From a virus (lineage: Duplodnaviria > Heunggongvirae > Uroviricota > Caudoviricetes): 64,000 bases of DNA. The stretch is from positions 33,932-97,931 of IMG/VR virus record IMGVR_UViG_3300031992_000025. The stretch is one strand, 5' to 3'. Positions 5,051 to 28,400 of the stretch are shown piece by piece. The notes under the pieces were generated by a model that made no database searches, was not told the DNA's origin, and saw only the letters and a list, made by a program, of their open reading frames with translations. Numbering within the stretch: position 1 is the first letter of the stretch; each line of letters begins with the position of its first letter. Made by a program: the position numbers and the translations under genes.

Positions 5051-5118
5051 AGAAACTACGCTTATTTCTTACATCCGCCGAAGCGCACGGCTAATTGCGT
5101 TGCCATTCTATTTAGAGC
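5051..5118 (+). repeat. bipartite bulged-helix motif copy 11 (divergent)
   Basis: AGAAACTACGCTTATTTCT ... GAGCTAGTTCAGAT (AACTA-C-GC pairs GC-TAGTT). Confidence 0.5.
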
Positions 5119-5236
5119 TAGTTCAGATATTGCAGCAAACAGACTATAGATAATATTTAGCCAGAGCGGTACGACTTGTGGTCAAATCCCAGGAGGAGAA
5201 CAAGGAGACTGGGTGTCTGATGACTAGCTACGAGCA

Positions 5237-5348
5237 AAATGGTAGAAGCTGTACTTATTTCCAAGTCTCTAGTGATGTGCAACCAAAAGTTGTATAGCAC
5301 TATAATAACAGTTATGTTAATGGAAATAGGCCGCAACAGTCAGTTCAA
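5237..5348 (+). repeat. bipartite bulged-helix motif copy 12 (divergent)
   Basis: AGAAGCTGTACTTATTTCC ... ACAGTCAGTTCAAAT. Confidence 0.45.
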
Positions 5349-5385
5349 ATATTACTTATAGTCTGTTTTTATTTTTAAAAAATTA

Positions 5386-5397
5386 TTGTATAATAAT
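5386..5397 (+). promoter_or_regulatory. extended -10 promoter TTGTATAATAAT
   Basis: TGn-TATAAT; motif copy 1 starts at +1. Confidence 0.55.
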
Positions 5398-5399
5398 AT

Positions 5400-5462
5400 A
5401 GAGCTTGTGCTTATTTCTAAATTACGAATCTTGAAAATCCGCGACATTAGCCAAGCCAAAAT
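5400..5462 (+). repeat. bipartite bulged-helix motif copy 1
   Basis: AGAGCTTGTGCTTATTTCT ... TAGCCAAGCCAAAA (GCTTG/CAAGC double covariation); begins at promoter +1. Confidence 0.65.
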
Positions 5463-5482
5463 AAAAAAATTTATAAAACTAT

Positions 5483-5515
5483 TTACAAAAATAAAAAAAT
5501 AGTTGTATAATATAT
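5483..5515 (+). promoter_or_regulatory. sigma70-type promoter TTTACA-N18-TTGTATAATATAT
   Basis: -35 TTTACA plus extended -10. Confidence 0.6.
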
Positions 5516-5546
5516 ATGTAAGCAGTGTCAATAAGACTTACAGTTA

Positions 5547-5600
5547 GAGCCTATACTTATTTCTTTAGAAAATATGGTATTCAAGTTAGTTAGGCCAAAT
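5547..5600 (+). repeat. bipartite bulged-helix motif copy 2
   Basis: AGAGCCTATACTTATTTCT ... AGTTAGGCCAAAT. Confidence 0.7.
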
Positions 5601-5691
5601 CGTTAATATATTCAAGCAGTTTTTGGAATATTAGGCGAATTGGCAGTCTAATATCTCAAAGGCTGCTTTTTATGTAAAGGAGGTCACAACC

Positions 5692-7725
5692 GTGACAAGA
5701 AATCAATTCAATGCACTTAGTGCAACCACAATCCCATCCAACATCCACGTCAATGCACAAACTATTTTGATTGCAAGACACTATCTTTTAGCTGTTCCAC
5801 AAGAAGTGGATCCAGAATTAAAGGTTAGAACTGCTTATTTAAACGCATATCTTTTCTCTAATTTTGGTATCGTAGTTGATAGACCAGAACTTTTAACCGA
5901 AACTCATGTTGAGGAAATTTCTGATTTATTCAAACTCAATGTCCCAGCTTCTTTCTATAAGAACCCACAAGATACTAAGTATTACACTTCTGGTGAGCTT
6001 TTTGTTAACCAAGTTTTAGCTTACTTCTTGGCTTATGGTGAAGAAGATTCTTCTATTGATGTTTTTGATAAGAAATTACCAGAATATCCAGAAGGTAAAG
6101 AAATCAAGCTTCGTGAATTCAAAATTCTTTTTGCTGACGAAGCAGATGAAGTTTTAGCTAATATCACTAAATCTTATGCTGATTACAAACGTCCATGGTC
6201 TTTAGACGAAGAAAATGAATTTGTCTACTTATATGAACATGGCTATTACAGAGATTTTGATATTCTTTGTGCTGACAATGCCATTACCATGATTAAGAAA
6301 GATGCTAACTTTGCTCGTTTCTTATACAAGAAAGACTTAGTTAAGATTTCTGTCGCTGCTTGTGGCGAAAAGTCTAAGCTTGTTTTAGACAAAGATACCG
6401 CTGATTTAATTAGAAAGGCTATTCCTTTCGTTAAAGACTGCCCAATGTCTAAGAAACAAGCTAAATACTTTAATACTTTAATTAATAAGGTTGGCGCGCA
6501 AGGCAAAGTTAAACTTGCTACTAATGAACGTTCACCTTATGCTAGAGCTCAAGCTTTACTTGACAAAGGCGATGTTTTAGGCGCTGCTAAAGTTTATGCT
6601 GCTAACGGTTCTTTATTTGAAAGAAATATCAAAATGTTAATTTCTCGTGCGAACCCAGCAGAAGCTTTAGAAATCATCAAAATGATTCCAGCTAAGAACC
6701 CAATCGCTTTATATCAATTTGTTACCAATTTGATGGAAGATAATGGCGGAAACCGTACTTTCACTTTCACCAAAAACAGATTGGTCAAAAAGCACATTGA
6801 AACTGAATACGAAGCTAAGTGGAGAAAGTCTAGACTTAATGAAGGAACCCGCAAAATGGTTCATGATGCAGTCTTTACTCAAATTGAAGCTGGCTATCGT
6901 GCTCAACCTTCTTTAGGTAAGGTTTATGTTTCACCAGACTTCTTCAAGGTTGGTGTTCCTGTTAATACTTCTGCCTCTGGTAAAGGTATTGATGTCTTAC
7001 CAGCTGGCTCAAGAATTCCAGTTCGTGGTGAATATATTAGAACATTTGTTCACTGGGAACATGCTTTCGATATTGACTCTTCATTAATTATTGTTGACAA
7101 AGACGATAAAATGAGTGTTATGAGCTTCTGGAACTTCTACCAAAAAGAATTCGGTAATGATATCTTATTCTCAGGTGACGTTACTAGCCCAACAGGAACT
7201 GAATATTTTGATATTAATTTACCTGCTCTTAAAAAGAAAGGTATTAAATATATCATTCAATCATTCCATGGCTTCTGCTCTAGCTTAAACAGTGGAGAAA
7301 TCTACTGTGGCTACCAAGATAAGAAAAATATCAATACAAAGGCTTGGGATCCTAAGAACATTGAATTAAAGATTCATGTTAAAGGTGATACCCGTGCATT
7401 TATCTCATTTGGTATTGACTTAGAAACAAATGAAGTAGTTGTCTTAAATATGCTTATTGATTCAGAAAGCCGTATTGTTTCACCAGATATGCGTGCTCTT
7501 GTCGATAAGTATTTAGGTTCAAGCTGTTTAGAGCTTAACATGGGCCTTGTTGCTACATACAGAGCATCTGAAGTTGTTGCAACTCCGGAAGAAGCAGACG
7601 TGGTCTTTGACCCAGCCTATACTTCTGCTGTTGACCCAGAAACAGGCAAAGCAACTCAAAAGGTTGTTAGACCATATGAAGTCGAAAGACTCGTTGGCCT
7701 TGCTTCTGGTGCAGAGCTTAATTAG
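5692..7725 (+). CDS. hypothetical large protein (677 aa), possible partner of Pnkp
   Basis: GTG start after AAGGAGG RBS; long upstream leader containing four motif copies and two promoters; no recognisable motifs by eye. Confidence 0.55.
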   Translation: MTRNQFNALSATTIPSNIHVNAQTILIARHYLLAVPQEVDPELKVRTAYLNAYLFSNFGIVVDRPELLTETHVEEISDLFKLNVPASFYKNPQDTKYYTSGELFVNQVLAYFLAYGEEDSSIDVFDKKLPEYPEGKEIKLREFKILFADEADEVLANITKSYADYKRPWSLDEENEFVYLYEHGYYRDFDILCADNAITMIKKDANFARFLYKKDLVKISVAACGEKSKLVLDKDTADLIRKAIPFVKDCPMSKKQAKYFNTLINKVGAQGKVKLATNERSPYARAQALLDKGDVLGAAKVYAANGSLFERNIKMLISRANPAEALEIIKMIPAKNPIALYQFVTNLMEDNGGNRTFTFTKNRLVKKHIETEYEAKWRKSRLNEGTRKMVHDAVFTQIEAGYRAQPSLGKVYVSPDFFKVGVPVNTSASGKGIDVLPAGSRIPVRGEYIRTFVHWEHAFDIDSSLIIVDKDDKMSVMSFWNFYQKEFGNDILFSGDVTSPTGTEYFDINLPALKKKGIKYIIQSFHGFCSSLNSGEIYCGYQDKKNINTKAWDPKNIELKIHVKGDTRAFISFGIDLETNEVVVLNMLIDSESRIVSPDMRALVDKYLGSSCLELNMGLVATYRASEVVATPEEADVVFDPAYTSAVDPETGKATQKVVRPYEVERLVGLASGAELN

Positions 7726-7740
7726 TATGAATTAAAACAA

Positions 7741-7775
7741 AAAAGCCTACTTTTTGTAGGCTTTTCTTTTTTATA
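7741..7775 (+). terminator. rho-independent terminator
   Basis: AAAAGCCTAC-TTTTT-GTAGGCTTTTCTTTTTT. Confidence 0.7.
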
Positions 7776-7885
7776 TTGTATAATAAATATATGATTATAA
7801 GCTAAATTAAAATGATAACTTCGGTTGTTATTTAGGGTACGATGTACTAATCTAGCTAACTAAGTTAATCAGTTTAGGAGTTACT

Positions 7886-8797
7886 ATGGCTGATACAACT
7901 TATACTGGTTGGAAAAGATGAAATCCAACATCTGAGGAATGAATTGATTTATATACAAATAATACAGTTCCATTCCAACTTAAAGAAAATGAATATTTAA
8001 TTGTTATGGCAACTGACGGCAGCACAACATTTTATTGCTATGAAAATGGCCAATTAAGAAAGTTTACTGGCGGTTCCATTAAAACAATTAAAGATACTAC
8101 CCCGGTTTTATTAGAAGAGCCAAAACCAAAGCAAGAGAGTAAACAACGATCTTCTACTCCAAAATATTCTAAGGGTAAGAATGTTGTAATTACTCCTAGA
8201 AATGAAGAACAAGTTTGTGCTTTTGACTTAATGAAAGACCCAACAAAAACAGTTAAATTGTTAACTGGAACTTGGGGCACAGGTAAAACCTTAATCTTAG
8301 TGTCTGCTGCATTAGAAGCTTTAAAAGCTGGACGTTTTAAAAGAATTGTCTGAATTAGAAATAATGTTGATGTTAAAGATACCAAAGATTTAGGTGCTTT
8401 ACCAGGTGAAGTAATTGATAAATTACTTCCATTCTTAGGACCTTTTATTGATCATGCTGGTGAAAACAGTGTTCGAACTATGCTAAATAAAGGAACTCTT
8501 GTTGTAGAACCTTTGCAATCTTTGAGGGGAAGAAATTTTGATAACACATTAATTATGTGTTCAGAAGCTGAAAACTTAACTAAAGAGCATATACAACTTA
8601 TTATTGCTCGTGCTGCTGAGGGCAGCGAAGTTTGGTTTGATGCTGATAACAGACAACGTGATAAAGCTTCTTTTGAGAAATCAAAAGGAATTGAAACACT
8701 TATTGAAAGATTTGCAGGACAAAAATTATTTGGGTATGTTCATTTAATTAAGTCTGAGCGTTCAAAGACTGCTGCAATGGCAGATTTATTAAATTAG
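7886..8797 (+). CDS. phoH: PhoH-like ATPase (three in-frame TGA read as sense)
   Basis: GTWGTGKT Walker A, LVVEPLQSLRGRNF, DADNRQRD motifs of PhoH family; frame continuous across TGA at about 7918, 7948 and 8351; RBS TAGGAGTTACT-ATG. Confidence 0.75.
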
Positions 8798-8808
8798 GAG
8801 GACTTCTA

Positions 8809-9474
8809 ATGTCACTTGTTATAGCTATAAAAGATAAAAATAGAGTTGTACTTGGTGCAGATAAGCAGGGAAGTGTGAGTGATTTTAAAGATCATTCATG
8901 CACAAAAATTTGGCCTGTTGAGGAGCTTCCAGGTGCCATTATGGGCGGCGTTGGTTCAGCGCGTGCCTCTCAAATTATTCAGTATGCTAATATTATTGAC
9001 AAGAATCTTATTGGCAAAGAAATTTCAACTGATTTTATTATTTGTTCATTAGCTCCAACAATTGCAGCTGGCTTAAAAGCTAACGGATTTAATTTAGAGG
9101 TTAAGGAAAATGAACTTTGCGAACTCATGCCAAATTCATTTATTTTTGCTTATAAAGATAAGGCTTGGATGATCTGGAATGATTTAAGCGTTACTGAAAT
9201 TGATGATTATTTAGCTATTGGCTCAGGTAGTGATGTTGCACGTGGAGCATTATTTGCTACAAAGAAGCATAACCCATTTGAGCGTATTGTTACAGCAATT
9301 GATGCTGCAGCTGAATCAACATTATTTGTTGATGATGATATTGATTTATTAGCAACAGACATATGCGAAGGTGATGATGAAAAAATTGCAAAAGCTTTAG
9401 GTTTTGAGATTAAAGAAGTTAAAGAAGAAATTAAAAAATCTGAGGCTAAAGCAAAAAAAACAAAAAAGAAGTAA
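8809..9474 (+). CDS. HslV/proteasome-beta-like Ntn-hydrolase peptidase
   Basis: MSLVIAIKDKNRVVLGADKQ N-terminus and AIGSGSDVARGAL resemble HslV TTIV...GDGQ and GSG motifs; Ser instead of Thr after Met; Lys-rich tail. Confidence 0.5.
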   Translation: MSLVIAIKDKNRVVLGADKQGSVSDFKDHSCTKIWPVEELPGAIMGGVGSARASQIIQYANIIDKNLIGKEISTDFIICSLAPTIAAGLKANGFNLEVKENELCELMPNSFIFAYKDKAWMIWNDLSVTEIDDYLAIGSGSDVARGALFATKKHNPFERIVTAIDAAAESTLFVDDDIDLLATDICEGDDEKIAKALGFEIKEVKEEIKKSEAKAKKTKKK

Positions 9475-9493
9475 TTAATTAACTTCTTATAAA

Positions 9494-9527
9494 GCATCCT
9501 GAGCATATGTACTCAGGATTTTTTATT
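9494..9527 (+). terminator. rho-independent terminator
   Basis: ATCCTGAG-CATATGTA-CTCAGGAT-TTTTTATT. Confidence 0.7.
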
Positions 9528-9538
9528 GTATAATATAT
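9526..9538 (+). promoter_or_regulatory. extended -10 promoter TTGTATAATATAT
   Basis: immediately after terminator, 14 nt before ATG of 9552 gene. Confidence 0.55.
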
Positions 9539-9551
9539 AGAGGTATTATAT

Positions 9552-10106
9552 ATGCAAGAAGAAATTGAAGCTATTAGAGATGCTTATTATCCAAGTAATA
9601 AGACAGAGGAAGAAAACAAGAAACTTTGTGAAAAGTACCCATTTCTTGCCTGGTATGGAGATCCACTTTATATGGGATATAGTGAAGAGGGTGAACCGAA
9701 TTATAAGTTTACTTGGGAAGATGAAGTGCCAGAAGGCTGGAGAAAAGCTTTTTGTCCTCAAATGTGGGACGAATTAAAAGAAATCCTTGCAAAAGCTGAT
9801 TATATTGATAAATTTAGATTTGTTCAGATTAAAGAAAAATGGGGGCAGTTGAGACTTTATTATAATGGTGTTCCAGAAGAAATCTATGATGAAATAGAAG
9901 CTTGGGAAGCTAAATATGAAAAGCTATCAGAAAAAACTTGTATTCATTGTGGAAAACCTGCTGAGTATATGTCAATAGGCTGGATTTCTCCTTGGTGTGA
10001 AGACTGTGCTAAAGAAATTAATGATGCTGTTATTAAAATTGAAGATACTGATAATTTCTATAATGCACCAAGAGAAGAAAGAATAAAATTTATTATAAAA
10101 TTCTAA
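9552..10106 (+). CDS. hypothetical protein with C-terminal CxxC...CxxC zinc ribbon
   Basis: CIHCGKP...WCEDCAKE; RBS AGAGGTATTATAT-ATG after promoter. Confidence 0.5.
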   Translation: MQEEIEAIRDAYYPSNKTEEENKKLCEKYPFLAWYGDPLYMGYSEEGEPNYKFTWEDEVPEGWRKAFCPQMWDELKEILAKADYIDKFRFVQIKEKWGQLRLYYNGVPEEIYDEIEAWEAKYEKLSEKTCIHCGKPAEYMSIGWISPWCEDCAKEINDAVIKIEDTDNFYNAPREERIKFIIKF

Positions 10107-10157
10107 AAACTATTTACAATTACGGATATTTATAGTATAATATATAAGTATCTTAAT

Positions 10158-10234
10158 CGTCCTATGGAGAAGTAGACTAACTCGGTGCCCTCTCAAGGCA
10201 TTATTCATGGGTGCAAATCCCATTAGGATGACCA
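10158..10234 (+). tRNA. tRNA-Glu(CTC)-like, atypical T-loop TGCAAAT
   Basis: hand fold: acceptor CGTCCTA/TAGGATG, anticodon loop CTCTCAA, CCA encoded. Confidence 0.35.
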
Positions 10235-10351
10235 AAATTAAAAAAAATATTTACAAATTAGAAAAAAAGTTGTATAATATTTATGAGCGTTGAAAAAAGA
10301 TACGCTAAATTAATATGTCAGCAGTGAGCTGGCAAGAAAGACGGAGAAAGT

Positions 10352-10477
10352 ATGAAAAAGACAATGACAATCGTATTATGGAATTGTTCCAATGGATTAG
10401 GTCGCCTTAATTCATATTTTAGCCATGAACAAGATATTAATTTTGGCAAGGGCTCTCCGGTATATTTGACCAGGTAA
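10352..10477 (+). CDS. small ORF (41 aa)
   Basis: GGAGAAAGT-ATG RBS downstream of promoter TTGTATAATATTTAT. Confidence 0.25.
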   Translation: MKKTMTIVLWNCSNGLGRLNSYFSHEQDINFGKGSPVYLTR

Positions 10478-10504
10478 CGTTTAATTACTTTGATTAAATA
10501 AGAA

Positions 10505-10532
10505 CAGGCGAGCCCAAAAGGTTCGCCTTTTT
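10505..10532 (+). terminator. rho-independent terminator
   Basis: AGGCGAGCC-CAAAAG-GTTCGCCT + TTTTTAATT. Confidence 0.6.
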
Positions 10533-10536
10533 AATT

Positions 10537-10621
10537 GCCCAGATGATGGAATAGGTAGACATAGGGGTCTTAAAAACCCCTGGCGCAAGCCGTGCCGGTT
10601 CGAGTCCGGCTCTGGGCACCA
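10537..10621 (+). tRNA. tRNA-Leu(TAA)
   Basis: acceptor GCCCAGA/TCTGGGC, anticodon loop CTTAAAA, long variable arm, CCA encoded. Confidence 0.8.
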
Positions 10622-10626
10622 ATTAT

Positions 10627-10712
10627 GGGAGCGTATTCTTCTAAGGACGGAGGGCGGTCTGTAAAACCGTTGCCATTTGGCTGGCTGGGTTCGATACCCA
10701 GAGCTCCCACCA
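10627..10712 (+). tRNA. tRNA-Tyr(GTA)
   Basis: anticodon loop CTGTAAA, long variable arm, T-loop TTCGATA, CCA encoded. Confidence 0.7.
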
Positions 10713-10720
10713 GAAAACAT

Positions 10721-10797
10721 GTTGAAGCGAATCCGACGGTTTTGGATGACGGTCTGTGAAACCGTATCATAGGGTCCGACTCCCTAGCTTCAACCCA
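10721..10797 (+). tRNA. tRNA-His(GTG)
   Basis: anticodon loop CTGTGAA; 8-bp acceptor with extra 5' G (G-1). Confidence 0.7.
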
Positions 10798-10802
10798 AAT
10801 AC

Positions 10803-10878
10803 GGTCCGGTAGCTCAGTTGGTAGAGCACGTGCCTGAAGAGCATGGTGTCGGCAGTTCGATCCTGCCCTGGACCACCA
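10803..10878 (+). tRNA. tRNA-Phe(GAA)
   Basis: GGTCCGGTAGCTCAGTTGGTAGAGC..CTGAAGA..GGCAGTTCGATCCTGCC. Confidence 0.8.
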
Positions 10879-10897
10879 TTTAAAAGAAAGGAACAGT

Positions 10898-11314
10898 ATG
10901 AAAGTTGTATTCTTAGACATTGATGGAGTCCTAAATGATGCAATCACAACAATGGACTTACTGGACGATAAGCCAAAGAAAGAGCATTTAGAGTGTCTAA
11001 AAGCAATTATTGATGCTACAGATGCTAAAATTGTCTTATCTTCAACTTGGCGATTATTCCCAAGCGCAAGAAATGATGTAAAAAATGCTCTAAGAAATGT
11101 CGGTCTTGAATTTATAGACAAAACAAAAGAACTTAGAGATAGAGCATCTGAAATTAAAGAATGGCTAAGTAGACACCCAGAAGTTGAAAAATTTGTAATC
11201 TTAGATGATGAAGAAATTTCTGGAAAGTTCCCTGATAACTTAGTTCAAACGACTTTCTACAGAGGCTTATTGCCAGAACATGTTGAAAAGGCAATAAAAA
11301 TCTTAAATTCTTAA
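10898..11314 (+). CDS. HAD-superfamily phosphatase-like protein
   Basis: VFLDIDGVLND motif I (DxDG), small 138-aa HAD-like fold; RBS AAAGGAACAGT-ATG. Confidence 0.5.
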   Translation: MKVVFLDIDGVLNDAITTMDLLDDKPKKEHLECLKAIIDATDAKIVLSSTWRLFPSARNDVKNALRNVGLEFIDKTKELRDRASEIKEWLSRHPEVEKFVILDDEEISGKFPDNLVQTTFYRGLLPEHVEKAIKILNS

Positions 11315-11349
11315 AAATTATATTTACAATTAGAAATGGTTGTAGTATA

Positions 11350-11580
11350 ATATAAATGTTGAATATGATAGCTGAAAAGACCATCACTCAGTAAGCTTGA
11401 ATAGAGTAGGTATGACGACTCCTGACACCGCTTAGTCGTCACGTCTATGGGCAAAATCTCATAGCAGCAGGCTAATGCTGTAAAACTTAGTCTAGGGTAC
11501 AGCTAATACGAACGTGGTAAAGGCCGAGGCCGAAGAAGGGCATAACAGGAGCGGACACCCTCTAAAGAGTGGGGCCACCA
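11350..11580 (+). ncRNA. candidate structured ncRNA ending in GGGGCCACCA
   Basis: ORF-free about 230 nt between promoter TTGTAGTATAATATAAAT and tRNA-Ile; internal hairpin TGACGACT..AGTCGTCA. Confidence 0.3.
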
Positions 11581-11585
11581 GATAT

Positions 11586-11661
11586 TGGAGCGTAGCTTAG
11601 TTGGTAAAGCACTCGGCCGATAACCGAGAGACCGCCGGTTCAAGTCCGGCCGCTCCAACCA
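11586..11661 (+). tRNA. tRNA-Ile(GAT)
   Basis: anticodon loop CCGATAA, acceptor TGGAGCG/CGCTCCA, CCA encoded. Confidence 0.8.
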
Positions 11662-11665
11662 ACAT

Positions 11666-11741
11666 AGGGGAGTAGCCAAGCGGTAAGGCATCGCCCTTTG
11701 AAGGCGACAGTACGAAGGTTCGATCCCTTCCTCCCCTGCCA
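11666..11741 (+). tRNA. tRNA-Gln(TTG)
   Basis: anticodon stem TCGCC/GGCGA loop CTTTGAA. Confidence 0.75.
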
Positions 11742-11744
11742 ATA

Positions 11745-11833
11745 TGCTGTAATAATGTAACAGGTAGCAGGTCCTAGCGCCATAGACGTATGGCAAATGC
11801 AGAGGGGAATTGGTTCAAGTCCAATTTACAGCA
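11745..11833 (+). ncRNA. tRNA-like element lacking an anticodon (hairpin GCCATA-GACG-TATGGC in place of anticodon arm)
   Basis: acceptor TGCTGTA/TACAGCA, T-arm AATTGG-TTCAAGT-CCAATT. Confidence 0.35.
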
Positions 11834-11840
11834 ACTATCT

Positions 11841-11915
11841 TGAGATGTCGACAAGCGGTAAGTCATCTGGCTCTGAACCAGATATTCCTTGGTTCGAATC
11901 CAAGCATCTCAGCCA
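11841..11915 (+). tRNA. tRNA-Gln(CTG)
   Basis: anticodon stem TCTGG/CCAGA loop CTCTGAA, CCA encoded. Confidence 0.75.
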
Positions 11916-11917
11916 GT

Positions 11918-11982
11918 AGAGCCTATACTTATTTCTGTCTAGAGACAATTGCCTGCAACGCGATCATTATAGTTAGGCCAAT
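11918..11982 (+). repeat. bipartite bulged-helix motif copy 3 (AGAGCCTATACTTATTTCT ... AGTTAGGCCAA)
   Basis: GCCTA-T-AC pairs GT-TAGGC; 34-nt insert; immediately after tRNA-Gln CCA. Confidence 0.7.
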
Positions 11983-11986
11983 AAAT

Positions 11987-12060
11987 AGGAGTTTGGTATA
12001 GTGGCCGTGCCTTGGTCTCCAAAACCAATGAGGTGAGTTCGATTCTTACAACTCCTGCCA
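11987..12060 (+). tRNA. tRNA-Trp(CCA)
   Basis: anticodon stem TTGGT/ACCAA loop CTCCAAA. Confidence 0.75.
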
Positions 12061-12065
12061 AATAT

Positions 12066-12154
12066 AGAAGGTTGGGAGAGCTGGTCTATTCCGCTTGTCT
12101 AGAAAACAAGAATGTCGCAAGGCATCATCCGTTCGAATCGGATACCTTCTGCCA
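12066..12154 (+). tRNA. tRNA-Ser(AGA), type II, A34
   Basis: anticodon stem CTTGT/ACAAG loop CTAGAAA, long variable arm; anticodon assignment tentative. Confidence 0.5.
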
Positions 12155-12158
12155 GAAT

Positions 12159-12246
12159 GGAGAGTTGGCCGAGTGGTCGAAGGCGTCTGTCTTGAAAACA
12201 GAAGTGGGGCAACCCACCTGGGGTTCGAATCCCTAACTCTCCGCCA
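12159..12246 (+). tRNA. tRNA-Ser(TGA)
   Basis: anticodon stem TCTGT/ACAGA loop CTTGAAA, long variable arm. Confidence 0.8.
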
Positions 12247-12291
12247 TAAAAACTGTTTACAACTCAGTATAAATGTTGTATAATATAAAAT

Positions 12292-12366
12292 GCGGGTATA
12301 GACAAGTGGTTAAGTCATGCGCCTTTCACGCGTATATCGCCGGTTCGAATCCGACTACCCGTACCA
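12292..12366 (+). tRNA. tRNA-Glu(TTC)
   Basis: anticodon loop CTTTCAC, preceded by promoter TTGTATAATATAAAAT. Confidence 0.7.
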
Positions 12367-12477
12367 AATTAATTTAATATTAGTACCTACTTGCTTAATG
12401 CTAGCAACAAGCAGACAAAAAAGAATGCCAGGTGAAACCGCTTTTACAGGTTTAGGTTGGGAGTAGCCACTTATTAT

Positions 12478-12552
12478 GGGTCATTAGCTCAATGGTAGAG
12501 CGGCCGGCTGTTAACCGGTTGACGACTGTTCGATTTCAGTCATGGCCCGCCA
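12478..12552 (+). tRNA. tRNA-Asn(GTT)
   Basis: anticodon stem GCCGG/CCGGT loop CTGTTAA. Confidence 0.75.
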
Positions 12553-12556
12553 TACA

Positions 12557-12660
12557 TGCGGTTGTTCGAAATTGGTATACGGTAATAGTTAAGCTATTAC
12601 AAGGCACTGGCAAGCATGCTGAAGTCATGTGTTTAGAGGTTCAAGTCCTCTCATCCGCAA
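12557..12660 (+). ncRNA. atypical long tRNA-like element (about 104 nt)
   Basis: T-arm AGAGG-TTCAAGT-CCTCT, acceptor-like GCGGTTG/CATCCGC, extra hairpin GTAATAG-TTAAG-CTATTAC. Confidence 0.3.
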
Positions 12661-12665
12661 CAAAT

Positions 12666-12760
12666 ATGCCCTTGGTCGTCTAATATGGTTAAGACGCGGC
12701 GTTATAAAGATAGAAGTGTACAGCTATCAAGTTGAGATGTGGTTACAATCCACTAAGGGG
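12666..12760 (+). ncRNA. atypical long tRNA-like element (about 95 nt)
   Basis: closing helix GCCCTT/AAGGGGC, T-arm GTGG-TTACAAT-CCAC, no clean anticodon arm. Confidence 0.3.
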
Positions 12761-12770
12761 CAGCTAAAAT

Positions 12771-12845
12771 GGATCGCTCGTATATCAGCTAGTATACTTG
12801 GCTGTCTACCATGGGAGGAGGGTTCGATTCCCTCGCGGTCCGCCA
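12771..12845 (+). tRNA. tRNA-Asp(GTC)
   Basis: anticodon loop CTGTCTA (one stem mismatch), acceptor GGATCGC/GCGGTCC. Confidence 0.55.
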
Positions 12846-12847
12846 AA

Positions 12848-12931
12848 AGAGCCTATACTTATTTCTTAATGGTTTTTGAAGGTTCGATTCCTTCATTACC
12901 CGCTTTGGGTGATGATATTAGTTAGGCCAAA
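12848..12931 (+). repeat. bipartite bulged-helix motif copy 4 enclosing a permuted tRNA minihelix
   Basis: AGAGCCTATACTTATTTCT + T-arm GAAGG-TTCGATT-CCTTC + acceptor 3' ATTACCC-G + CTTT + complementary 5' strand GGGTGAT + AGTTAGGCCAA. Confidence 0.65.
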
Positions 12932-12982
12932 GTTTATTTAGAAAGGAGAAAGCTTATGTAATTGTTAAAGGAGGACATAACG

Positions 12983-13234
12983 ATGAGTTATAGTCGAAAA
13001 CAATTTGATAAGCAAAAGCTAAAAAAGCTTGCAAAAAATAGCTGTAATGGCTGGAAAGGTGGCGCATATTATAGTCGCTATTTAGGCCATTATGTTCGTT
13101 GGTGGAAAAGTAAAGGTAGGAATAGTAGATATGCTTACTATAAAAAATTCTATCGCAAACGAATGAGAAGATTTGCAAACAAAAATGGTTGGTATTCTAA
13201 AAAAGAGTTCGATTTAATTTGGACTTGTTGGTAA
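12983..13234 (+). CDS. small basic Arg/Lys/Tyr/Trp-rich protein
   Basis: RBS AAAGGAGGACATAACG-ATG; 83 aa, highly basic. Confidence 0.4.
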   Translation: MSYSRKQFDKQKLKKLAKNSCNGWKGGAYYSRYLGHYVRWWKSKGRNSRYAYYKKFYRKRMRRFANKNGWYSKKEFDLIWTCW

Positions 13235-13239
13235 AATTA

Positions 13240-13253
13240 TTGTATAATATAAT
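13240..13253 (+). promoter_or_regulatory. extended -10 promoter TTGTATAATATAAT
   Basis: drives ncRNA candidate plus tRNA-Met cluster. Confidence 0.55.
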
Positions 13254-13254
13254 A

Positions 13255-13537
13255 GAGCTTACTTAACTGTTGGCTTAGAAGCAGCCATCATATAATGAGT
13301 GACCAACAGAACGTAAGGTGGTGCATCACTGAAATGAAGCGTCCCTAAATTACTGGATGAGAAATGGGACGTAAAACTGTCGGGAGTCAATAAAAATCTA
13401 TAATTTGGTAAGGGTGGTCAGAGTACCATTCTTAACTAAGAGCGTGCTGTAGGCACAGTAAATGCAGTATAATCAATGTTATAGAGTGCCCTAAGAGTCT
13501 TTGGCGTAGTAGCACATAAGTAAGTTCTTTATAACAT
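13255..13537 (+). ncRNA. candidate structured ncRNA (about 280 nt) transcribed from TTGTATAATATAAT promoter
   Basis: ORF-free, GC-richer than surroundings, directly upstream of tRNA-Met. Confidence 0.35.
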
Positions 13538-13613
13538 TGCGGGGTGCTAGCAGCGGTAGCTAACTGGGCTCATAACCCAGAGGTCGTAGGTTCGATTCCT
13601 ACCCCCGCGACCA
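13538..13613 (+). tRNA. tRNA-Met(CAT), initiator-like
   Basis: anticodon stem CTGGG/CCCAG (three G-C pairs next to loop) loop CTCATAA. Confidence 0.7.
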
Positions 13614-13617
13614 ATAT

Positions 13618-13732
13618 TGCATGATAGTCGAGTGGAAGAGACGACCGCATACATAAGCGGTGGACACAGCTGAAAGTAAATTCTAGATAGGAGTAAGCTA
13701 GAGCGGAGGTTCGATTCCTTCTCATGCGACCA
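13618..13732 (+). ncRNA. atypical 115-nt tRNA-like with 8-nt anticodon-type loop and about 45-nt extra arm
   Basis: acceptor TGCATGA/TCATGCG-A-CCA, T-arm GGAGG-TTCGATT-CCTTC, stem ACCGC/GCGGT with loop ATACATAA. Confidence 0.35.
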
Positions 13733-13734
13733 GA

Positions 13735-14010
13735 GGCAGGTTTTCATCGATTTTAGAGCCTCGCACATAAGAAAATCGATAGATAGACGGACTATGTACA
13801 AGATATGTCTAATCTAAAAAAGGAAAGGTTGTACACCAGAAATTTGGTCGGCTAGTTGGCGTAAACCTAGCAATAGGAGCGTTTGCAACAGACCCTCAAT
13901 AACTGCAGTGAGAGGGCAAGCACGAGCTTACAAGAAGAGACTGCGACGGATGAAATATTCCTAGAGCTCTTGAGCTGAGAGCACAAGGTTCACTGGGCAA
14001 AGAACAAAAC
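13735..14010 (+). ncRNA. candidate structured ncRNA (about 275 nt)
   Basis: ORF-free, 9-bp hairpin ATCGATTTT/AAAATCGAT with loop AGAGCCTCGCACATAAG. Confidence 0.3.
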
Positions 14011-14012
14011 AC

Positions 14013-14089
14013 GGACCGTTGGTGTAGTGGCCTTGCATGCTTCTCTGTCACGGAAGAGATCACGAGTTCGAATCTCGTACGGTCCGCCA
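14013..14089 (+). tRNA. tRNA-Asp(GTC)
   Basis: anticodon stem CTTCT/GGAAG loop CTGTCAC, acceptor GGACCGT/ACGGTCC. Confidence 0.75.
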
Positions 14090-14094
14090 TAGTT

Positions 14095-14202
14095 AGAGCC
14101 AATACTTATTTCTTAGCGAGGTAGCTCAGAGGTTAGAGCAGCAGATATTAATCTGAAGGTCGTAGGTTCAAGTCCTTCCCTTGCCAGGCCTAGTTTGGCC
14201 GA
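14095..14202 (+). repeat. bipartite bulged-helix motif copy 5 enclosing an anticodon-less tRNA-like unit
   Basis: AGAGCCAATACTTATTTCT ... GTTTGGCC (GCCAA/TTGGC covariation); insert 14115-14186 has acceptor, D-arm, T-arm and hairpin CAGAT-ATTA-ATCTG instead of anticodon loop. Confidence 0.65.
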
Positions 14203-14205
14203 TCT

Positions 14206-14282
14206 GGCTGGGTGGCCAAGCTGGTTAAGGCACAAAGCTCATACCTTTGGGATCGTCAGTTCAAATCTGACCCCAGCTACCA
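14206..14282 (+). tRNA. tRNA-Met/Ile2(CAT), elongator-type
   Basis: anticodon stem CAAAG/CTTTG loop CTCATAC. Confidence 0.7.
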
Positions 14283-14285
14283 TTT

Positions 14286-14363
14286 AGAGCTTATACTTAT
14301 TTCTTGAATGCTGTGGTTCGAATCCACCTTGCCTGTGGGGAGCGGAAAGTAGTTAAGCCAAAT
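14286..14363 (+). repeat. bipartite bulged-helix motif copy 6 enclosing tRNA 3'-fragment
   Basis: AGAGCTTATACTTATTTCT ... AGTTAAGCCAAAT (GCTTA/TAAGC covariation); insert has T-arm GTGG-TTCGAAT-CCAC. Confidence 0.65.
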
Positions 14364-14365
14364 AC

Positions 14366-14441
14366 GCACTCTTAACTCAACTGGGAGAGTGCTACCCTTA
14401 CAAGGTAGAAGTTGTAGGTCCGAGTCCTACAGAGTGCACCA
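14366..14441 (+). tRNA. tRNA-Val(TAC)
   Basis: anticodon stem CTACC/GGTAG loop CTTACAA. Confidence 0.8.
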
Positions 14442-14581
14442 TGGCATGTATGCAATTAGAAAACGCAACCTGCCGGTAAAGTAGGCGCTCCGAGTAGTCT
14501 CGAAGTAGGAGCTTTGTGGAATATTGCTAAATCGAGACTTTAGTAACAATATTCTAGGTGTAATTCCCACCATGCCAACCA
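14442..14581 (+). ncRNA. 140-nt tRNA-like RNA (acceptor TGGCATG/CATGCCA-A-CCA) with large internal insertion
   Basis: 7-bp terminal helix plus ACCA; T-loop-like GGTG-TAATTCC-CACC. Confidence 0.3.
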
Positions 14582-14585
14582 ATTT

Positions 14586-14660
14586 GCAGACGTAGGACAA
14601 TGGTTAGTCCATCGCCTTGCCAAGGCGAATATACGGGTTCGATTCCCGCCGTCTGCTCCA
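14586..14660 (+). tRNA. tRNA-Gly(GCC)
   Basis: anticodon stem TCGCC/GGCGA loop TTGCCAA. Confidence 0.7.
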
Positions 14661-14731
14661 CCAGGACAGATAAAGATTAGTTTCTTTATTAGGTTCTAAG
14701 GCTGGACAAATCGATAAAACCAGCCAGTTAT

Positions 14732-14806
14732 GCGGGTGTCGTCCAACGGTCAGGGCCTCTGCCTTCCAAGCAGAAGATACCGGTTCGATTCCGGCCACCC
14801 GCTCCA
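14732..14806 (+). tRNA. tRNA-Gly(TCC)
   Basis: anticodon stem TCTGC/GCAGA loop CTTCCAA. Confidence 0.75.
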
Positions 14807-14834
14807 TTAGCAGTATTTAAAAGGAGAAAAAACA

Positions 14835-14930
14835 ATGAAAACAATGAAACTCAGTCGTCTAAGTTGTCGAAGCTGTAAAGCTTGTTTTCGTTGTCTCAGT
14901 ATAAATACCGCGTTAGCTCAGCTGGATTAG
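14835..14930 (+). CDS. Cys-rich micro-ORF (31 aa, C-x2-C-x2-C-x2-C) reading into tRNA-Arg
   Basis: strong RBS AAAAGGAGAAAAAACA-ATG. Confidence 0.25.
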   Translation: MKTMKLSRLSCRSCKACFRCLSINTALAQLD

Positions 14931-14984
14931 AGCATTTGGCTACGAACCAAAAGGTCGAGGGTCCGAATCCTTCACGCGGTGCCA
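14907..14984 (+). tRNA. tRNA-Arg(ACG)
   Basis: anticodon stem TTTGG/CCAAA loop CTACGAA. Confidence 0.75.
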
Positions 14985-14985
14985 A

Positions 14986-15060
14986 GCTTTGGTAGCCAAG
15001 TGGTTAAGGCTTCGGTCTGCAACACCGACATCGTGGGTTCGAATCCCACCCAAAGCTCCA
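14986..15060 (+). tRNA. tRNA-Cys(GCA)
   Basis: anticodon stem TCGGT/ACCGA loop CTGCAAC. Confidence 0.8.
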
Positions 15061-24822: not shown

Positions 24823-24895
24823 AAGAGCCTATACTTATTTCTACAAATAAAAATGAAGATCTAAGAACAAAGCTAGTTAGGCCAAAGTAAAAATT
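24823..24895 (+). repeat. bipartite bulged-helix motif copy 7
   Basis: AGAGCCTATACTTATTTCT ... AGTTAGGCCAAAG; preceded by 9-bp hairpin GTGAATTGC..GCAATTCAC. Confidence 0.65.
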
Positions 24896-25229: not shown

Positions 25230-25835
25230 ATGAGAAAAACAATTGATGATATTAAAAAACAAATTTGGGAGAATTCATTGCATACCTGTGAATATTTAAG
25301 TGGTGAAGCAAAACCAGGTAAAAAAATTCATGTAAGATGCATAATTCATAATGAAGAGTTTGATGTAAGTTATGATACTATTCGTAAATCTACTAGAAAA
25401 CATCATATTTGTCCTAAATGTAAAGCTGAAGATGATGCAAAAGATAAGGTAAAACTTATTTGCGATTATTGTGGTAAAGAGTATTATGTTGCAAAAAGTA
25501 AGTCTACTAAATCAGATTATCATTTCTGTTGTAGAGCTTGTAAAGATTCTGCACAAAAGATTAATTCTGGAGAAAAATTTAATGAATTAAGACCAGATCA
25601 TTATGGAACTGGAACAACAACTTACAGAGATGCAGCATTTATAGCTTATCCACATAAATGTGCAATTTGTGGTTGGGCTGAGGATGAAGATGTGCTTGAA
25701 GTTCATCATATTGATGAAAATAGAGCAAATGCAAGTTTAGACAATTTAATTATATTATGTCCAACTTGTCATAGAAAATTATCTATTCATAAATATTATC
25801 TTACTGATGATAGAAAAAGCATTATTAAAAAATAA
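25230..25835 (+). CDS. HNH homing endonuclease with Cys-rich zinc-binding N-terminal region
   Basis: EVHHIDENRANASLDNLIILCPTCH (HNH motif); multiple CxxC pairs. Confidence 0.65.
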   Translation: MRKTIDDIKKQIWENSLHTCEYLSGEAKPGKKIHVRCIIHNEEFDVSYDTIRKSTRKHHICPKCKAEDDAKDKVKLICDYCGKEYYVAKSKSTKSDYHFCCRACKDSAQKINSGEKFNELRPDHYGTGTTTYRDAAFIAYPHKCAICGWAEDEDVLEVHHIDENRANASLDNLIILCPTCHRKLSIHKYYLTDDRKSIIKK

Positions 25836-26247: not shown

Positions 26248-26370
26248 AGAACCTGTGCTTATTTCTAATAGGGCAAGCAGGTTGTCGCTGGTTCGAATCC
26301 AGCCTTCTCCACCATTAATTGGGGAAGTAGCTCAGTTGGTAGAGCACCCGCAAAATATTAGCCAGGTCAT
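26248..26370 (+). repeat. bipartite bulged-helix motif copy 8 enclosing permuted tRNA halves (3' half, linker, 5' half)
   Basis: AGAACCTGTGCTTATTTCT + T-arm GCTGG-TTCGAAT-CCAGC + CTTCTCC-A-CCA (ends 26314) + TTAATT + GGGGAAG-TA-GCTC-AGTTGGTA-GAGC-A-CCCGC (26321-26351) + partner GCCAGGT (26361-26367); acceptor strands GGGGAAG/CTTCTCC fully complementary (G3-U70). Confidence 0.65.
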
Positions 26371-26449: not shown

Positions 26450-26453
26450 TTAT

Positions 26454-26657: not shown

Positions 26658-26690
26658 GATTATAAAGGACGTTAGTTAACGTAATATAAT

Positions 26691-26863: not shown

Positions 26864-26938
26864 ACCGCCATAGTACAACGGATAGTACAGTAGCCTTCTA
26901 AGCTTCTGATCCGGGTTCGATTCCTGGTGGCGGTGCCA
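26864..26938 (+). tRNA. tRNA-Arg(TCT)
   Basis: anticodon loop CTTCTAA, acceptor ACCGCCA/TGGCGGT. Confidence 0.7.
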
Positions 26939-26940
26939 TT

Positions 26941-27010
26941 AGAGCCTATGCTTATTTCTAGCTCAACGAGAGCGTCAAACATTTAATTTGAAGGTATAGC
27001 TAGGCCAAAA
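26941..27010 (+). repeat. bipartite bulged-helix motif copy 9
   Basis: AGAGCCTATGCTTATTTCT ... TAGCTAGGCCAAAA (AC to GC paired by GT to GC change). Confidence 0.65.
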
Positions 27011-27014
27011 TTAT

Positions 27015-27092
27015 GCACCGTCGGTCGCAAGGTGTGACACTCGACTTTTAATCGAGGTATCAGGATGGGTTCGATTCCCTCACGGTGCACCA
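27015..27092 (+). tRNA. tRNA-Lys(TTT)
   Basis: anticodon stem CTCGA/TCGAG loop CTTTTAA. Confidence 0.75.
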
Positions 27093-27096
27093 ATAT

Positions 27097-27171
27097 GCAC
27101 CCTTAGCCAAGCGGTATGGCCTACGACTTTTAATCGTATTATCAGGTGTTCGACTCACCTAGGGTGTACCA
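27097..27171 (+). tRNA. tRNA-Lys(TTT), second copy
   Basis: anticodon stem TACGA/TCGTA loop CTTTTAA. Confidence 0.75.
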
Positions 27172-27174
27172 GTA

Positions 27175-27252
27175 TGCTCCGTTGGCGCAATTAGGTAGCG
27201 CAAGATACTCTTAATATCTGGGTTACAGGTTCGATTCCTGTACGGAGCACCA
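27175..27252 (+). tRNA. tRNA-Lys(CTT)
   Basis: anticodon stem AGATA/TATCT loop CTCTTAA. Confidence 0.8.
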
Positions 27253-27310
27253 ATAAAATATTTTGCATTTGACTTAAAATTATTTGCTAAATTAATTGAG
27301 GTTCAAAATT

Positions 27311-28123
27311 ATGGCAAATTATATAAGTCACACTGCTTGAAATAAAGGCTTAACCAAAGAAACCGATAGTCGTTTAGCAAAAACAGCTTTATTACAAAGT
27401 AAAGTTAAAAAAGGTAAACCAAATCATCCACAAACTGCTGAAACAAGAGCAAAAATATCAGCTGCTAGAAAAAAATACATAGCAGAGCATCCAGATCAAG
27501 TTCCATTTAAAATGCACCATTCATCTAAAGAAAGTTTTCCAGAAAGATATTTTAGACTTTGACTTAAAAAAGAAAAATTATTAGAAGCACAAGAACTACA
27601 GATTGATAGATATACATTAGATTTTGCTTGGCCAGATAAAAAGATTTATTTAGAAATTGATGGAAATCAGCATAAGTTAGATTGAATGCAAGAGCATGAT
27701 AAAATTAGAACTGATTATTTAAATACTTTAGGTTGAACATGTATTGGTAGAATAGATTGATCTTGATATAAAGCTTTGTGCACAAAAGAAAAGCATAAAT
27801 ATTTACAAAACATAAAAGCAGCAATTGAGCAAGCTAGTTTTATAGAAAAATTTATATCAAAAAAAGACTTAGCTTTACAAAAACGTCAAAAGCTTATTGA
27901 AGCTGGATTTGTTATGAAAGATGGCAGAACAGCTCCATGAATGTTATCTAATAATGAATGGCAAAGACGTTTACAGCTAATACTAGATAGTAATATAGAC
28001 TTAACAAAATTTGGCTGGAAAGAACAAGTACAAAAAATAACGAATTTAACTCGTAGCCAATTAAACGATACAATAGAGCATTTTCCAGAACATTTTACAA
28101 AAATCTATATTAGAGGCAAATAA
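27311..28123 (+). CDS. homing endonuclease-like protein: NUMOD3-type DNA-binding motifs plus DUF559/Vsr-like PD-(D/E)XK nuclease domain (about 10 in-frame TGA)
   Basis: HTAWNKGLTKETDSRLAKTA and KPNHPQTAETRAKISAARKK (NUMOD3-like); DFAWPDKKIYLEIDGNQH...LGWTCIGRIDW; TGA codons fall at conserved Trp-like positions (GW motif). Confidence 0.65.
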
Positions 28124-28205
28124 ATTATTGTATAATATATTGTGGTTGAGATATGAGTTTTGGTAGTTTTGTGCCACGCATGCGGAAATAAAAACTACTA
28201 TATAT

Positions 28206-28281
28206 GCCGACTTAGCTCAGCTGTTAGAGCAATTCACTAGTAATGAATAGGTCGGGGGTTAGAATCCCTCAGTCGGCACCA
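28206..28281 (+). tRNA. tRNA-Thr(AGT), A34
   Basis: anticodon stem ATTCA/TGAAT loop CTAGTAA, acceptor GCCGACT/AGTCGGC, T-loop TTAGAAT. Confidence 0.6.
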
Positions 28282-28283
28282 TC

Positions 28284-28400
28284 AGAGCCCATGCTTATTT
28301 CTTTCGGCTTGTAACCGGGTGGTCGTTGGTTCGAATCCAACTCGGCGCTGTATAGTGTCGATAGCTCAGCGGTAGAGCACCTTATTTAGCTGGGCCTTTT
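28284..28400 (+). repeat. bipartite bulged-helix motif copy 10 enclosing a permuted tRNA-Thr(TGT)-like gene
   Basis: AGAGCCCATGCTTATTTCT + anticodon arm TTCGG-CTTGTAA-CCGGG + T-arm GTTGG-TTCGAAT-CCAAC + acceptor 3' TCGGCGC-T + TGTATA + acceptor 5' GTGTCGA-TA-GCTC-AGCGGTA-GAGC + partner GCTGGGCC-TTTTT; acceptor strands pair 7/7 (two G-U). Confidence 0.65.

Follow-up and report, generated by a model that had tools for sequence, protein, structure and literature searches.

A clamp-like RNA element with modular tRNA-like inserts in a phage tRNA array and in gut Clostridia: comparison with bacterial Y RNAs

Background

Bacterial and phage Y RNAs have a closing stem and, on the 5' strand, the motif GNCGAA(N)G (CGAA) that contacts Ro60, together with a tRNA-like module in the case of the bacterial YrlA (PMC4201824; PMC12135203; PMC7824862), and their genes adjoin the Ro60 gene (PMC4201824; PMC12135203). 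In the Rfam consensus of YrlA, the contact motif appears as CgaAUGC on the 5' strand between the outer and the inner stem. Usually, one or two Y RNAs are present per genome. Here we describe an RNA element, hereafter called the clamp, which is present in twelve copies in a 64,000-nucleotide (nt) stretch of the genome of a tailed phage (Caudoviricetes; IMG/VR record IMGVR_UViG_3300031992_000025, positions 33,932 to 97,931; the whole stretch is referred to as the window and numbered from its first letter). The window has a G+C content of 32% and 38 tRNA genes, all on the + strand, and looks like a part of a large (jumbo) phage genome; related metagenomic viral contigs span 146-233 kb, and no near relative was found among the deposited phages of INPHARED.

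As in YrlA, the 5' and 3' ends of the clamp RNA pair to close it, the 5' strand bears a conserved unpaired motif between this closing stem and the connector stem, and the distal part is a tRNA mimic in the identical permuted order (connector, T arm, capped acceptor, UA, D arm). Moreover, the RNA genes, often several of them, stand beside the gene of the presumed protein partner, and are found in bacteria and large phages in an RNA-repair context. Unlike in YrlA, RC-UUAYUUCU replaces GNCGAA(N)G (CGAAUGC in YrlA), the neighbouring protein has a TerD fold instead of a vWA domain and no detectable TROVE domain, most copies lack the tRNA-like module or have only parts of it, and twelve copies lie in 24 kb within tRNA arrays. 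Thus, the clamp RNA shares its architecture and tRNA-mimic module with YrlA, but not the protein-contact module or the neighbouring protein.

Results

The clamp helix is selected at the RNA level

The motif, written as RNA, is AGA-N5-U-RC-UUAUUUCU ... UA-GY-N5'-C. When the window was scanned with AGA-N5-T-RC-TTATTTCT, 16 matches were obtained (3.4 expected), of which 12 were on the + strand with 0-1 mismatch each and four on the - strand, all of them two-mismatch noise. The twelve + strand copies of the initial annotation were therefore borne out by the pattern scan of the 64-kb window; its pattern, AGAG-N5, gave no match at two or fewer mismatches, because the final G of AGAG is base 1 of the variable 5-mer. 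Nine of its twelve start positions were exact, and 5237, 5547 and 24823 had to be shifted slightly to 5244, 5546 and 24824, so that the copies start at 5051, 5244, 5400, 5546, 11918, 12848, 14095, 14286, 24824, 26248, 26941 and 28284. The 3' arm is the exact reverse complement of the seven paired nucleotides, 24-94 nt downstream, in 11 of the 12 copies (the exception, 5244, pairs via a single G.U), and the compensating arm pairs listed earlier were all correct. As for the flanks described as invariant, the C after the 3' arm is constant, but the bases beyond it vary (AAA, AGA, AAT, GAT, ATA or TTT), and two copies deviate, namely 5051 (AGAA, and C as the bulge base) and 5244 (TTATTTCC). A scan for the complete paired element gave 12 on the + strand; the - strand had none, and the shuffles had 0.15 per window, and chance is therefore excluded. 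All of the window copies are co-directional with the genes and tRNAs.

The helix consists of 8-9 base pairs (bp): 5 bp, a 1-nt bulge on one strand (phage lineage) and 3 bp. It is longer than was first noted by the further invariant pair U18-A29, and G8 and C37, both invariant, possibly pair across a bulged A. The invariant positions are G8 and A9 of AGA, C17, UUAUUUC, A29-G30 and the C after the 3' arm; in one bacterial subfamily, the C17-G30 pair is changed to U-A on both sides. The related viral contigs carry 2-7 copies each, and contigs with a single chance match were used as the control. A perfect 7/7 partner was present for approximately 68 of 72 copies in the multi-copy contigs, compared with 3 of 99 chance single-match loci. 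In an alignment of 65 distinct copies with the insert removed, the 9-pair structure was paired in 100% of 585 cells (85% after shuffling and 10-54% in slid registers), with double-sided changes in six of the nine pairs (102 cells). Note that this alignment was selected for pairing, and the ratio of about 68/72 to 3/99 is therefore the fair estimate. A single non-Watson-Crick position was present in 98 distinct copies: G.U or U.G in 67, A.C or C.A in 10, and others in 21. The excess of G.U over A.C and the strict strand specificity indicate that the structure is selected in the transcript, not in the DNA. Thus, the selection on the helix that had been proposed from the twelve copies holds, the covariation being kept in more than 200 copies of related phages and bacteria, and it acts at the RNA level.

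The inserts are modular, and several are tRNA-like

At the gathering threshold, only tRNAs were detected in the window with Rfam, and permissive Rfam scans yielded no family for the clamp. The Rfam model of YrlA (RF02553) matched the interior of copies 26248 and 28284 with 38.1 and 33.5 bits, respectively (E values, 3e-6 and 7e-5 in a 2.4-kb scan; model positions 23-88 of 114). Over the two window copies and many relatives, E values of 1e-6 to 1e-10 were obtained, and 9 of 12 bacterial loci tested also had matches (35-47 bits, 100-300 nt upstream of the gene). All of these scores (33-47 bits) are below the gathering score of 69, and clamp RNAs, the motif of which is missing from Rfam, have been missed by annotation for this reason. 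The Ro/Rsr-binding motif GNCGAA(N0-1)G (CGAA) is absent: model positions 1-22 were unmatched or deleted, and the CgaAUGC segment was deleted in the single full-length alignment to the clamp family (L140; numbers with L denote loci other than the window). At the place topologically equivalent to this segment, the clamp family has RC-UUAYUUCU. Until now, the partner Ro60 has been the defining feature of Y RNAs; here, the same tRNA-mimic module is borne on a different, highly conserved handle.

The inserts of 69 copies from the window and its relatives were divided into five classes. Class 1 inserts are short and AU-rich with UGGG in the centre; element 4 (5546-5596), with a short insert and a central UGG, is the copy nearest to the downstream protein gene described below. 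Class 2 inserts (about 40 nt) have UA followed by a D-arm-like and an anticodon-arm-like hairpin, the loop of which is often CUUUUAA; the window member is element 11 (26941-27006; loop CAUUUAA), directly before three tRNA-Lys genes. Class 3 inserts are of the YrlA type (85-120 nt), and roughly half of them carry an additional mini-hairpin, the loop of which is anticodon-like (CUUUUAA, CUUCUAA, CUUGUAA, CUGUUAA or CUGCUAA). Element 10 (26248-26368; arms ACCTG/CAGGT and GC/GC) has such an insert in the order connector, T arm, acceptor stem capped by ACCAUUAAUU, UA and D arm, and element 12 (28284-28396; GCCCA/TGGGC) adds the mini-hairpin with the loop CUUGUAA and is followed, after its 3' arm, by a T-run. 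In class 4, the clamp encloses a whole tRNA or tRNA-like gene of normal order, as in element 7 (14095-14200, around 14114-14187) and at L005:7049 and L099:682. Class 5 has a T arm with or without a capped stem: the insert of element 6 (12848-12928), 2 nt after tRNA-Asp, has the T arm GAAGG-UUCGAUU-CCUUC and a loop-capped 7-bp stem and thus mimics the top-half minihelix of a tRNA, and element 8 (14286-14359; GCTTA/TAAGC), between tRNA-Met and tRNA-Val, has a T-arm-like hairpin inside. The bacterial inserts fall in the same classes.

Folding of copies 26248 and 28284 gave a T arm, a loop-closed acceptor stem and a D arm in permuted order, and RNAalifold with 15 long phage copies recovered the clamp and both the T and the D arm, together with a capped acceptor stem of 8 bp; double changes preserve 20 of the 25 pairs. 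By eye, the connector stem also covaries (ACUGU/AUAGU versus ACUGU/ACAGU, CGU/ACG and AGCUGG/CCAGCU). The mini-hairpins of the long elements (window 28305-28321; L002:1741, L005:4920, L021:2732, L073:3545, L099:545 and others) have covarying 2-5 bp stems and 7-nt loops that fit the anticodon-loop rule CU-NNN-AA, and their "anticodons" (UUU, UCU, UGU, GUU and GCU) are those of tRNAs for ANN codons, some of which, for example Lys-UUU, are known targets of anticodon nucleases. The tRNA-like gene in element 7 was reported by ARAGORN as "tRNA-???" (Rfam tRNA, 49 bits); with its 6-nt anticodon loop, UAUUAA, it could not serve in normal decoding, and it is possibly a pseudo-tRNA or a decoy.

The clamp is genomically linked to the p677 family

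Four copies lie in the leader of an open reading frame (ORF) of 677 amino acids (5692-7725, + strand), as first annotated; its product, p677, is a candidate protein partner of the clamp RNAs. A sigma-70-type promoter (5482-5511, + strand; TTTACA-18-TATAAT, 11/12, with an extended -10), kept as TGTATAATATAATG in related phages, lies upstream of element 4 and p677. Between element 4 and the ribosome-binding site (RBS), there is a terminator- or attenuator-like hairpin (5614-5674, + strand; 22 bp followed by UUUUUAU), which a simple hairpin scan (20 or fewer stem pairs, loops of 3-8) misses, and the position of which is conserved in related phages (L003, L021, L026, L073, L077 and L084). The 5' strand of this hairpin in the relatives contains GCUUAUUUUGG, resembling CUUAUUUCU of the clamp. 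The leader order conserved in phages is therefore promoter, class-1 element, hairpin with a U-tract, RBS and start codon. In every related phage locus holding a p677 homolog (47-57% identity), a class-1 copy was found about 100-160 nt upstream of it, and YrlA-type elements occur directly downstream of the homolog in related phages.

The linkage extends to distant relatives. All five distant p677 relatives inspected (21-25% identity), one of which sits in a bacterial chromosome amid housekeeping genes, have one to four clamps directly upstream on the same strand, with the consensus GCUA-N5-RC-UUACUUCU ... A-GY-N5' and no bulge. One genome per bacterial species was then scanned, and 246 loci were found to encode p677 relatives; nearly all of the best 80 of the 246 belong to Clostridia of the rumen or gut, with cultured Lachnospiraceae and Eubacterium ruminantium among them. 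With a variant-aware scan, which was written by hand and is not a calibrated covariance model, at least one clamp was present within 500 nt upstream in 57 of 71 evaluable bacterial loci. There were 109 clamps in 36.6 kb of upstream sequence and 14 elsewhere (719 kb, both strands), which amounts to an enrichment of 153-fold. GCUA, which was not part of the search criteria, precedes 105 of the 109 upstream copies; the bacterial flanks are GCUA ... GAU/AAU. Thus, the motif is genomically linked to the p677 family across deep divergence.

A protein model of p677 (moderate confidence) has a helical-repeat N-terminal part and a C-terminal TerD-fold domain (TerD beta-sandwich). The family comprises more than 524 close matches and 1,443 clusters at 50% identity (E <= 0.001), and 32 diverse members had no Pfam match even at E <= 10. 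The NCBIfam model NF041916 ("MXAN_6230/SCO0854 RING domain protein") matched residues 280-586 with an E value of 5e-19; no literature on this lead was found, nor any paper in which an RNA partner is described for a TerD protein.

For the comparison with Ro60, a protein with a ring of HEAT-like repeats and a vWA domain, the human sequence was validated against PDB entry 9nen, those of Xenopus Ro60 and Deinococcus Rsr were taken from PDB alignments, and bacterial TROVE proteins were collected and aligned. A TROVE hidden Markov model built from 20 diverse Ro60/Rsr sequences was run on the window and on approximately 1.15 Mb of related loci; no ORF reached E <= 1, and tblastn gave no TROVE match. 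The search covered 64 kb of the phage genome, and a Ro60 gene may be present elsewhere in it. The only segments that aligned were two collinear short motifs of the p677 family that resemble TROVE, LLxxxHxKP (LLHHIHYKP in the family and LLRLSHLKP in Ro60) and LLRNL...(H/N)P (LLRNLNYLLSR...NPI and LLRNLGKM...IHPF, respectively), a resemblance that is a hint only.

Discussion

A proposed Y-RNA-like handle and its candidate partner

On balance, we lean towards the view that the clamp is the constant handle of a Y-RNA-like modular family of small RNAs with the p677-family protein as the partner. In this model, the 5' and 3' RNA ends would pair into the 8-9 bp helix beside the invariant single-stranded 5'-UUAYUUCU-3' of the 5' strand, and the helix and this strand together would be the most likely docking site for the protein. 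The variable insert (YrlA-type mimic, minihelix, D plus anticodon arm, whole tRNA-like gene or UGGG loop) would be the working end, and the handle would have spread into the tRNA arrays of this jumbo phage, displaying different tRNA parts. Seven copies begin 2-5 nt past a tRNA 3' end, and five of these end 6-9 nt ahead of the next tRNA; the copies occupy "tRNA slots", and RNase P/Z-type processing of the flanking tRNAs would therefore free them as discrete RNAs. By analogy with Ro60 and Y RNAs, these RNAs may link the protein to factors that recognise tRNAs, or may offer tRNA parts to such factors; this could serve the surveillance or repair of tRNAs, or a counter-defence against host nucleases that cleave them. 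The RNA-repair context is suggested by the Pnkp-like enzyme, the Thg1-like enzyme and the 38 tRNAs that share the window. The leader copies probably also give feedback control of p677, since the terminator-like hairpin follows them.

Several points weigh against this model. The YrlA tRNA-like module is present in two of the twelve window copies (26248 and 28284), the other ten having it in part or not at all, and no tRNA-like feature was found in the five window copies with short inserts. The homology of p677 to TROVE (PF05731) was non-significant (hhalign probability, 0.2-0.5%). The only recognisable fold in p677 is TerD, known as a Ca2+/ligand-binding domain and not as an RNA binder (PMC7824862). 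The binding of clamp RNA by p677 is putative. No copy was detectable in 14 of the 71 bacterial loci. The transcript ends are putative, having been deduced from promoters and tRNA boundaries. Finally, linkage to a downstream gene is equally expected of a purely cis-acting leader element.

If the partnership is true, it would provide the first functional clue (an RNA partner and a tRNA-related role) for more than 1,400 protein clusters without a Pfam domain, and the design of a protein handle plus a tRNA mimic would have evolved or been re-wired more than once. Phage tRNA arrays, currently interpreted only as codon-supply or anti-nuclease tRNA reservoirs, would also gain a new class of genes other than those for tRNAs. 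The pair of gene and RNA is directly testable because it is present in cultured rumen isolates; the strains with both gene and clamp include Lachnospiraceae bacterium AC2029 and C6A11 and Eubacterium ruminantium FB3002 (L179, L143 and L198).

More tentatively, and with doubt prevailing, the helical-repeat plus TerD family (>1,400 clusters) might be a cryptic counterpart of Ro60, possibly a relative diverged beyond recognition. Together with the clamp RNAs, it would then be a second, widespread ribonucleoprotein of the Ro/Y-RNA kind in Clostridia of the gut and rumen, captured and multiplied by jumbo phages, in which one handle shows a panel of tRNA parts (elbow, acceptor minihelix, and anticodon arms of the Lys, Arg, Thr and Asn types). 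These parts would be decoys or adaptors, either to counter host defences directed at tRNAs or to assist in tRNA repair.

Alternative explanations

The strongest competitor, which we nevertheless regard as unlikely, is that the clamp is purely a cis-acting leader element for autoregulation of the p677-family gene or for modulation of its terminator hairpin, the array copies being a secondary spread without function in trans. The one to four tandem copies in the roughly 500 nt that precede the gene in both bacteria and phages, and the conserved order of promoter, element, long hairpin with U-tract and RBS, are what such an element would show. However, 8 of the 12 window copies are 4-21 kb from p677, in tRNA arrays or before other ORFs, many phage copies own a -10 box, YrlA-type copies lie downstream of the gene in relatives, and the elaborate covarying tRNA-like inserts would be superfluous for a simple operator. 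A cis role of the leader copies probably coexists with a function as a Y-RNA-like handle. In this respect, the clamp is like CsrB/RsmZ-CsrA and the autoregulatory leaders of ribosomal proteins, in which the same site is present in a gene leader and in separate small RNAs; with the repeated site in both, one protein may read all of the clamps. Sequence, structure and protein are unrelated to those systems, and the clamp sites, unlike theirs, hold variable cargo domains.

It is rather improbable that the clamp is a processing or ligation substrate, in which the helix would align the 5' AGA and the 3' CAAA like a broken anticodon stem-loop (5-bp stem and 7-nt open loop), so that the Rnl1-type ligase of the Pnkp-like enzyme circularises the RNA, or a nuclease cuts the tRNA-array transcripts at the bulged helix. 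The Pnkp-like ORF (2121-4406, + strand; P-loop kinase, metallophosphoesterase and Rnl1-type RNA ligase), a conserved upstream neighbour in phages, ends about 0.6 kb upstream of the first copy, and a stand-alone AAA_33/KTI12 (polynucleotide-kinase-like) kinase takes the same place in one relative. The elements occupy tRNA slots, and a few clamps enclose whole tRNAs (14095, L005:7049 and L099:682), which would also suit a substrate. Against this, the bacterial copies are in the leader of a single gene (flanked by housekeeping genes at locus L127), and the invariant UUAYUUCU strand is left unexplained. Moreover, the open-loop geometry is not conserved, because the bacterial subfamily has other flanks (GCUA ... 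GAU/AAU) and is missing the bulge.

Still less probable is a riboswitch-like aptamer that senses a small molecule or a tRNA and controls the downstream gene; nucleoside-like signals are the presumed input of the TerD proteins of Ter systems. The leader position, the tandem copies and the terminator-like hairpin downstream are compatible with it, and the UGG(G) loop of class 1 could in principle pair with the 3' CCA end of a tRNA; but conservation is confined to one helix and eight unpaired bases, and the inserts, between 12 and about 120 nt long and unrelated in content, vary more than is usual for an aptamer. In addition, UUAYUUCU had no visible conserved partner for a pseudoknot, and most window copies are ahead of tRNAs and not of ORFs.

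We give practically no credence to a DNA-level element, either a cruciform or the attC-like recombination site put forward in the initial annotation: like attC (core sites, RYYYAAC ... GTTRRRY), the clamp is a bulged and imperfect inverted repeat, in which one base is extrahelical and the centre varies, and the commonest 3' arm, GTTAGGC, fits GTTRRRY, but many 3' arms break this consensus (GCCAAGC, GCTAGGC, GCCAGGT, GCTGGGC, GCTAGTT and GTTTGGC), RNA pairing is selected (G.U tolerated and A.C not) with strict strand specificity in the direction of transcription, the invariant single-stranded UUAYUUCU has no symmetric counterpart, the clamps lie in gene leaders and tRNA transcripts with no cassette structure seen, and no integrase was found among the approximately 30 window ORFs scanned (a part of the window ORFs). 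Among the three candidates proposed there, a protein-binding hairpin came closest, while the modular YrlA-type inserts, the tie to p677 (and not to the Pnkp-like enzyme) and the spread to chromosomes of Clostridia had been missed.

Other RNA systems compared

Like the permuted and split tRNA genes of Cyanidioschyzon and Nanoarchaeum, the YrlA-type elements have the order 3' half, capped acceptor and 5' half, and a leader-trailer helix. Functional permuted tRNA genes, which circularise and are then processed, were rejected as an identity: a covarying connector stem stands in place of the anticodon stem, and no junction restores a normal tRNA. Nor is there a bulge-helix-bulge (BHB) motif. The BHB splice motif has two 3-nt bulges flanking a 4-bp helix, and this geometry was not found in the clamp (5 bp, a 1-nt bulge on one strand and 3 bp, and no bulge in the bacterial subfamily); to our knowledge, bacteria and phages are without the splicing endonuclease. 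By inspection of the sequence alone, K-turns and hammerhead- or twister-type ribozyme cores (no GA tandem and no catalytic core motif) and boxA/nut (boxA, GCUCUUUA, is unlike RCUUAYUUCU) were also rejected. CUUCU could pair with AGGAG as an anti-Shine-Dalgarno sequence; the copies are 26-250 nt from start codons, and most are before tRNAs.

Other copies and neighbouring genes

The remaining copies of the window, all on the + strand, are as follows. Element 1 (5051-5124) is degenerate, AGA-AACTA-C-GC-TTATTTCT ... GC-TAGTT-C, with a 47-nt insert. Element 2 (5244-5346) reads AGA-AGCTG-T-AC-TTATTTCC ... GT-CAGTT-C, and its 76-nt insert has its own long hairpin, pairing with the UUAUUUCC strand. 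The spacer between these two elements (5124-5244; 120 nt) is non-coding and folds moderately (-23 kcal/mol). Element 3 (5400-5457; GCTTG/CAAGC and GC/GC) has a 31-nt insert. A TATAAT box is present 3-10 nt upstream of many copies in the relatives and of this one, the transcript of which probably begins near AGA, since the box ends 5 nt upstream. Element 5 (11918-11979; 35-nt insert) has tRNA-Gln 2 nt upstream and tRNA-Trp 8 nt downstream, and element 9 (24824-24883) has an AU-rich 33-nt insert and an RBS downstream.

In a 218-kb relative, a polynucleotide-kinase-like gene is upstream of the p677 homolog, and an array of tRNAs and clamps extends over 8 kb downstream. In the window, the region 30363-33789 encodes a SAM (S-adenosylmethionine) methyltransferase, an SPFH/flotillin-like protein and a Thg1-like tRNA 5'-end repair polymerase; with the Pnkp-like gene (2121-4406), this cluster is an extensive tRNA-repair toolkit. 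An HNH endonuclease ORF (25230-25835) lies inside the tRNA cluster and a homing-endonuclease-like ORF (29043-29546) just past it, and the two possibly drive rearrangement of the tRNA/clamp array. A PhoH-like protein is encoded in two ORFs (8006-8353 and 8480-8797) 127 nt apart, and the same split is seen in the related locus L110 (6527-6886 and 7016-7330), so that it may be due to a small intervening element or a programmed feature and not to a sequencing error. Within an HslV-like ORF, 55 nt (9123-9177) share 91% identity with Lak megaphages of Prevotella; the region 5000-15000 had no other match among deposited phages. In the phage-like contig L123, a full-length ROOL RNA (RF03087, 291 bits; 1041-1655) stands between tRNA genes, and about 0.7 kb further downstream lies a distant p677-family gene, which has three clamps. 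A further link of the family to tRNA is seen in several bacterial or metagenomic loci, in which a tRNA gene directly follows the p677-family gene: L142 (3678-3750), L145 (3635-3707) and L124 (3154-3230).

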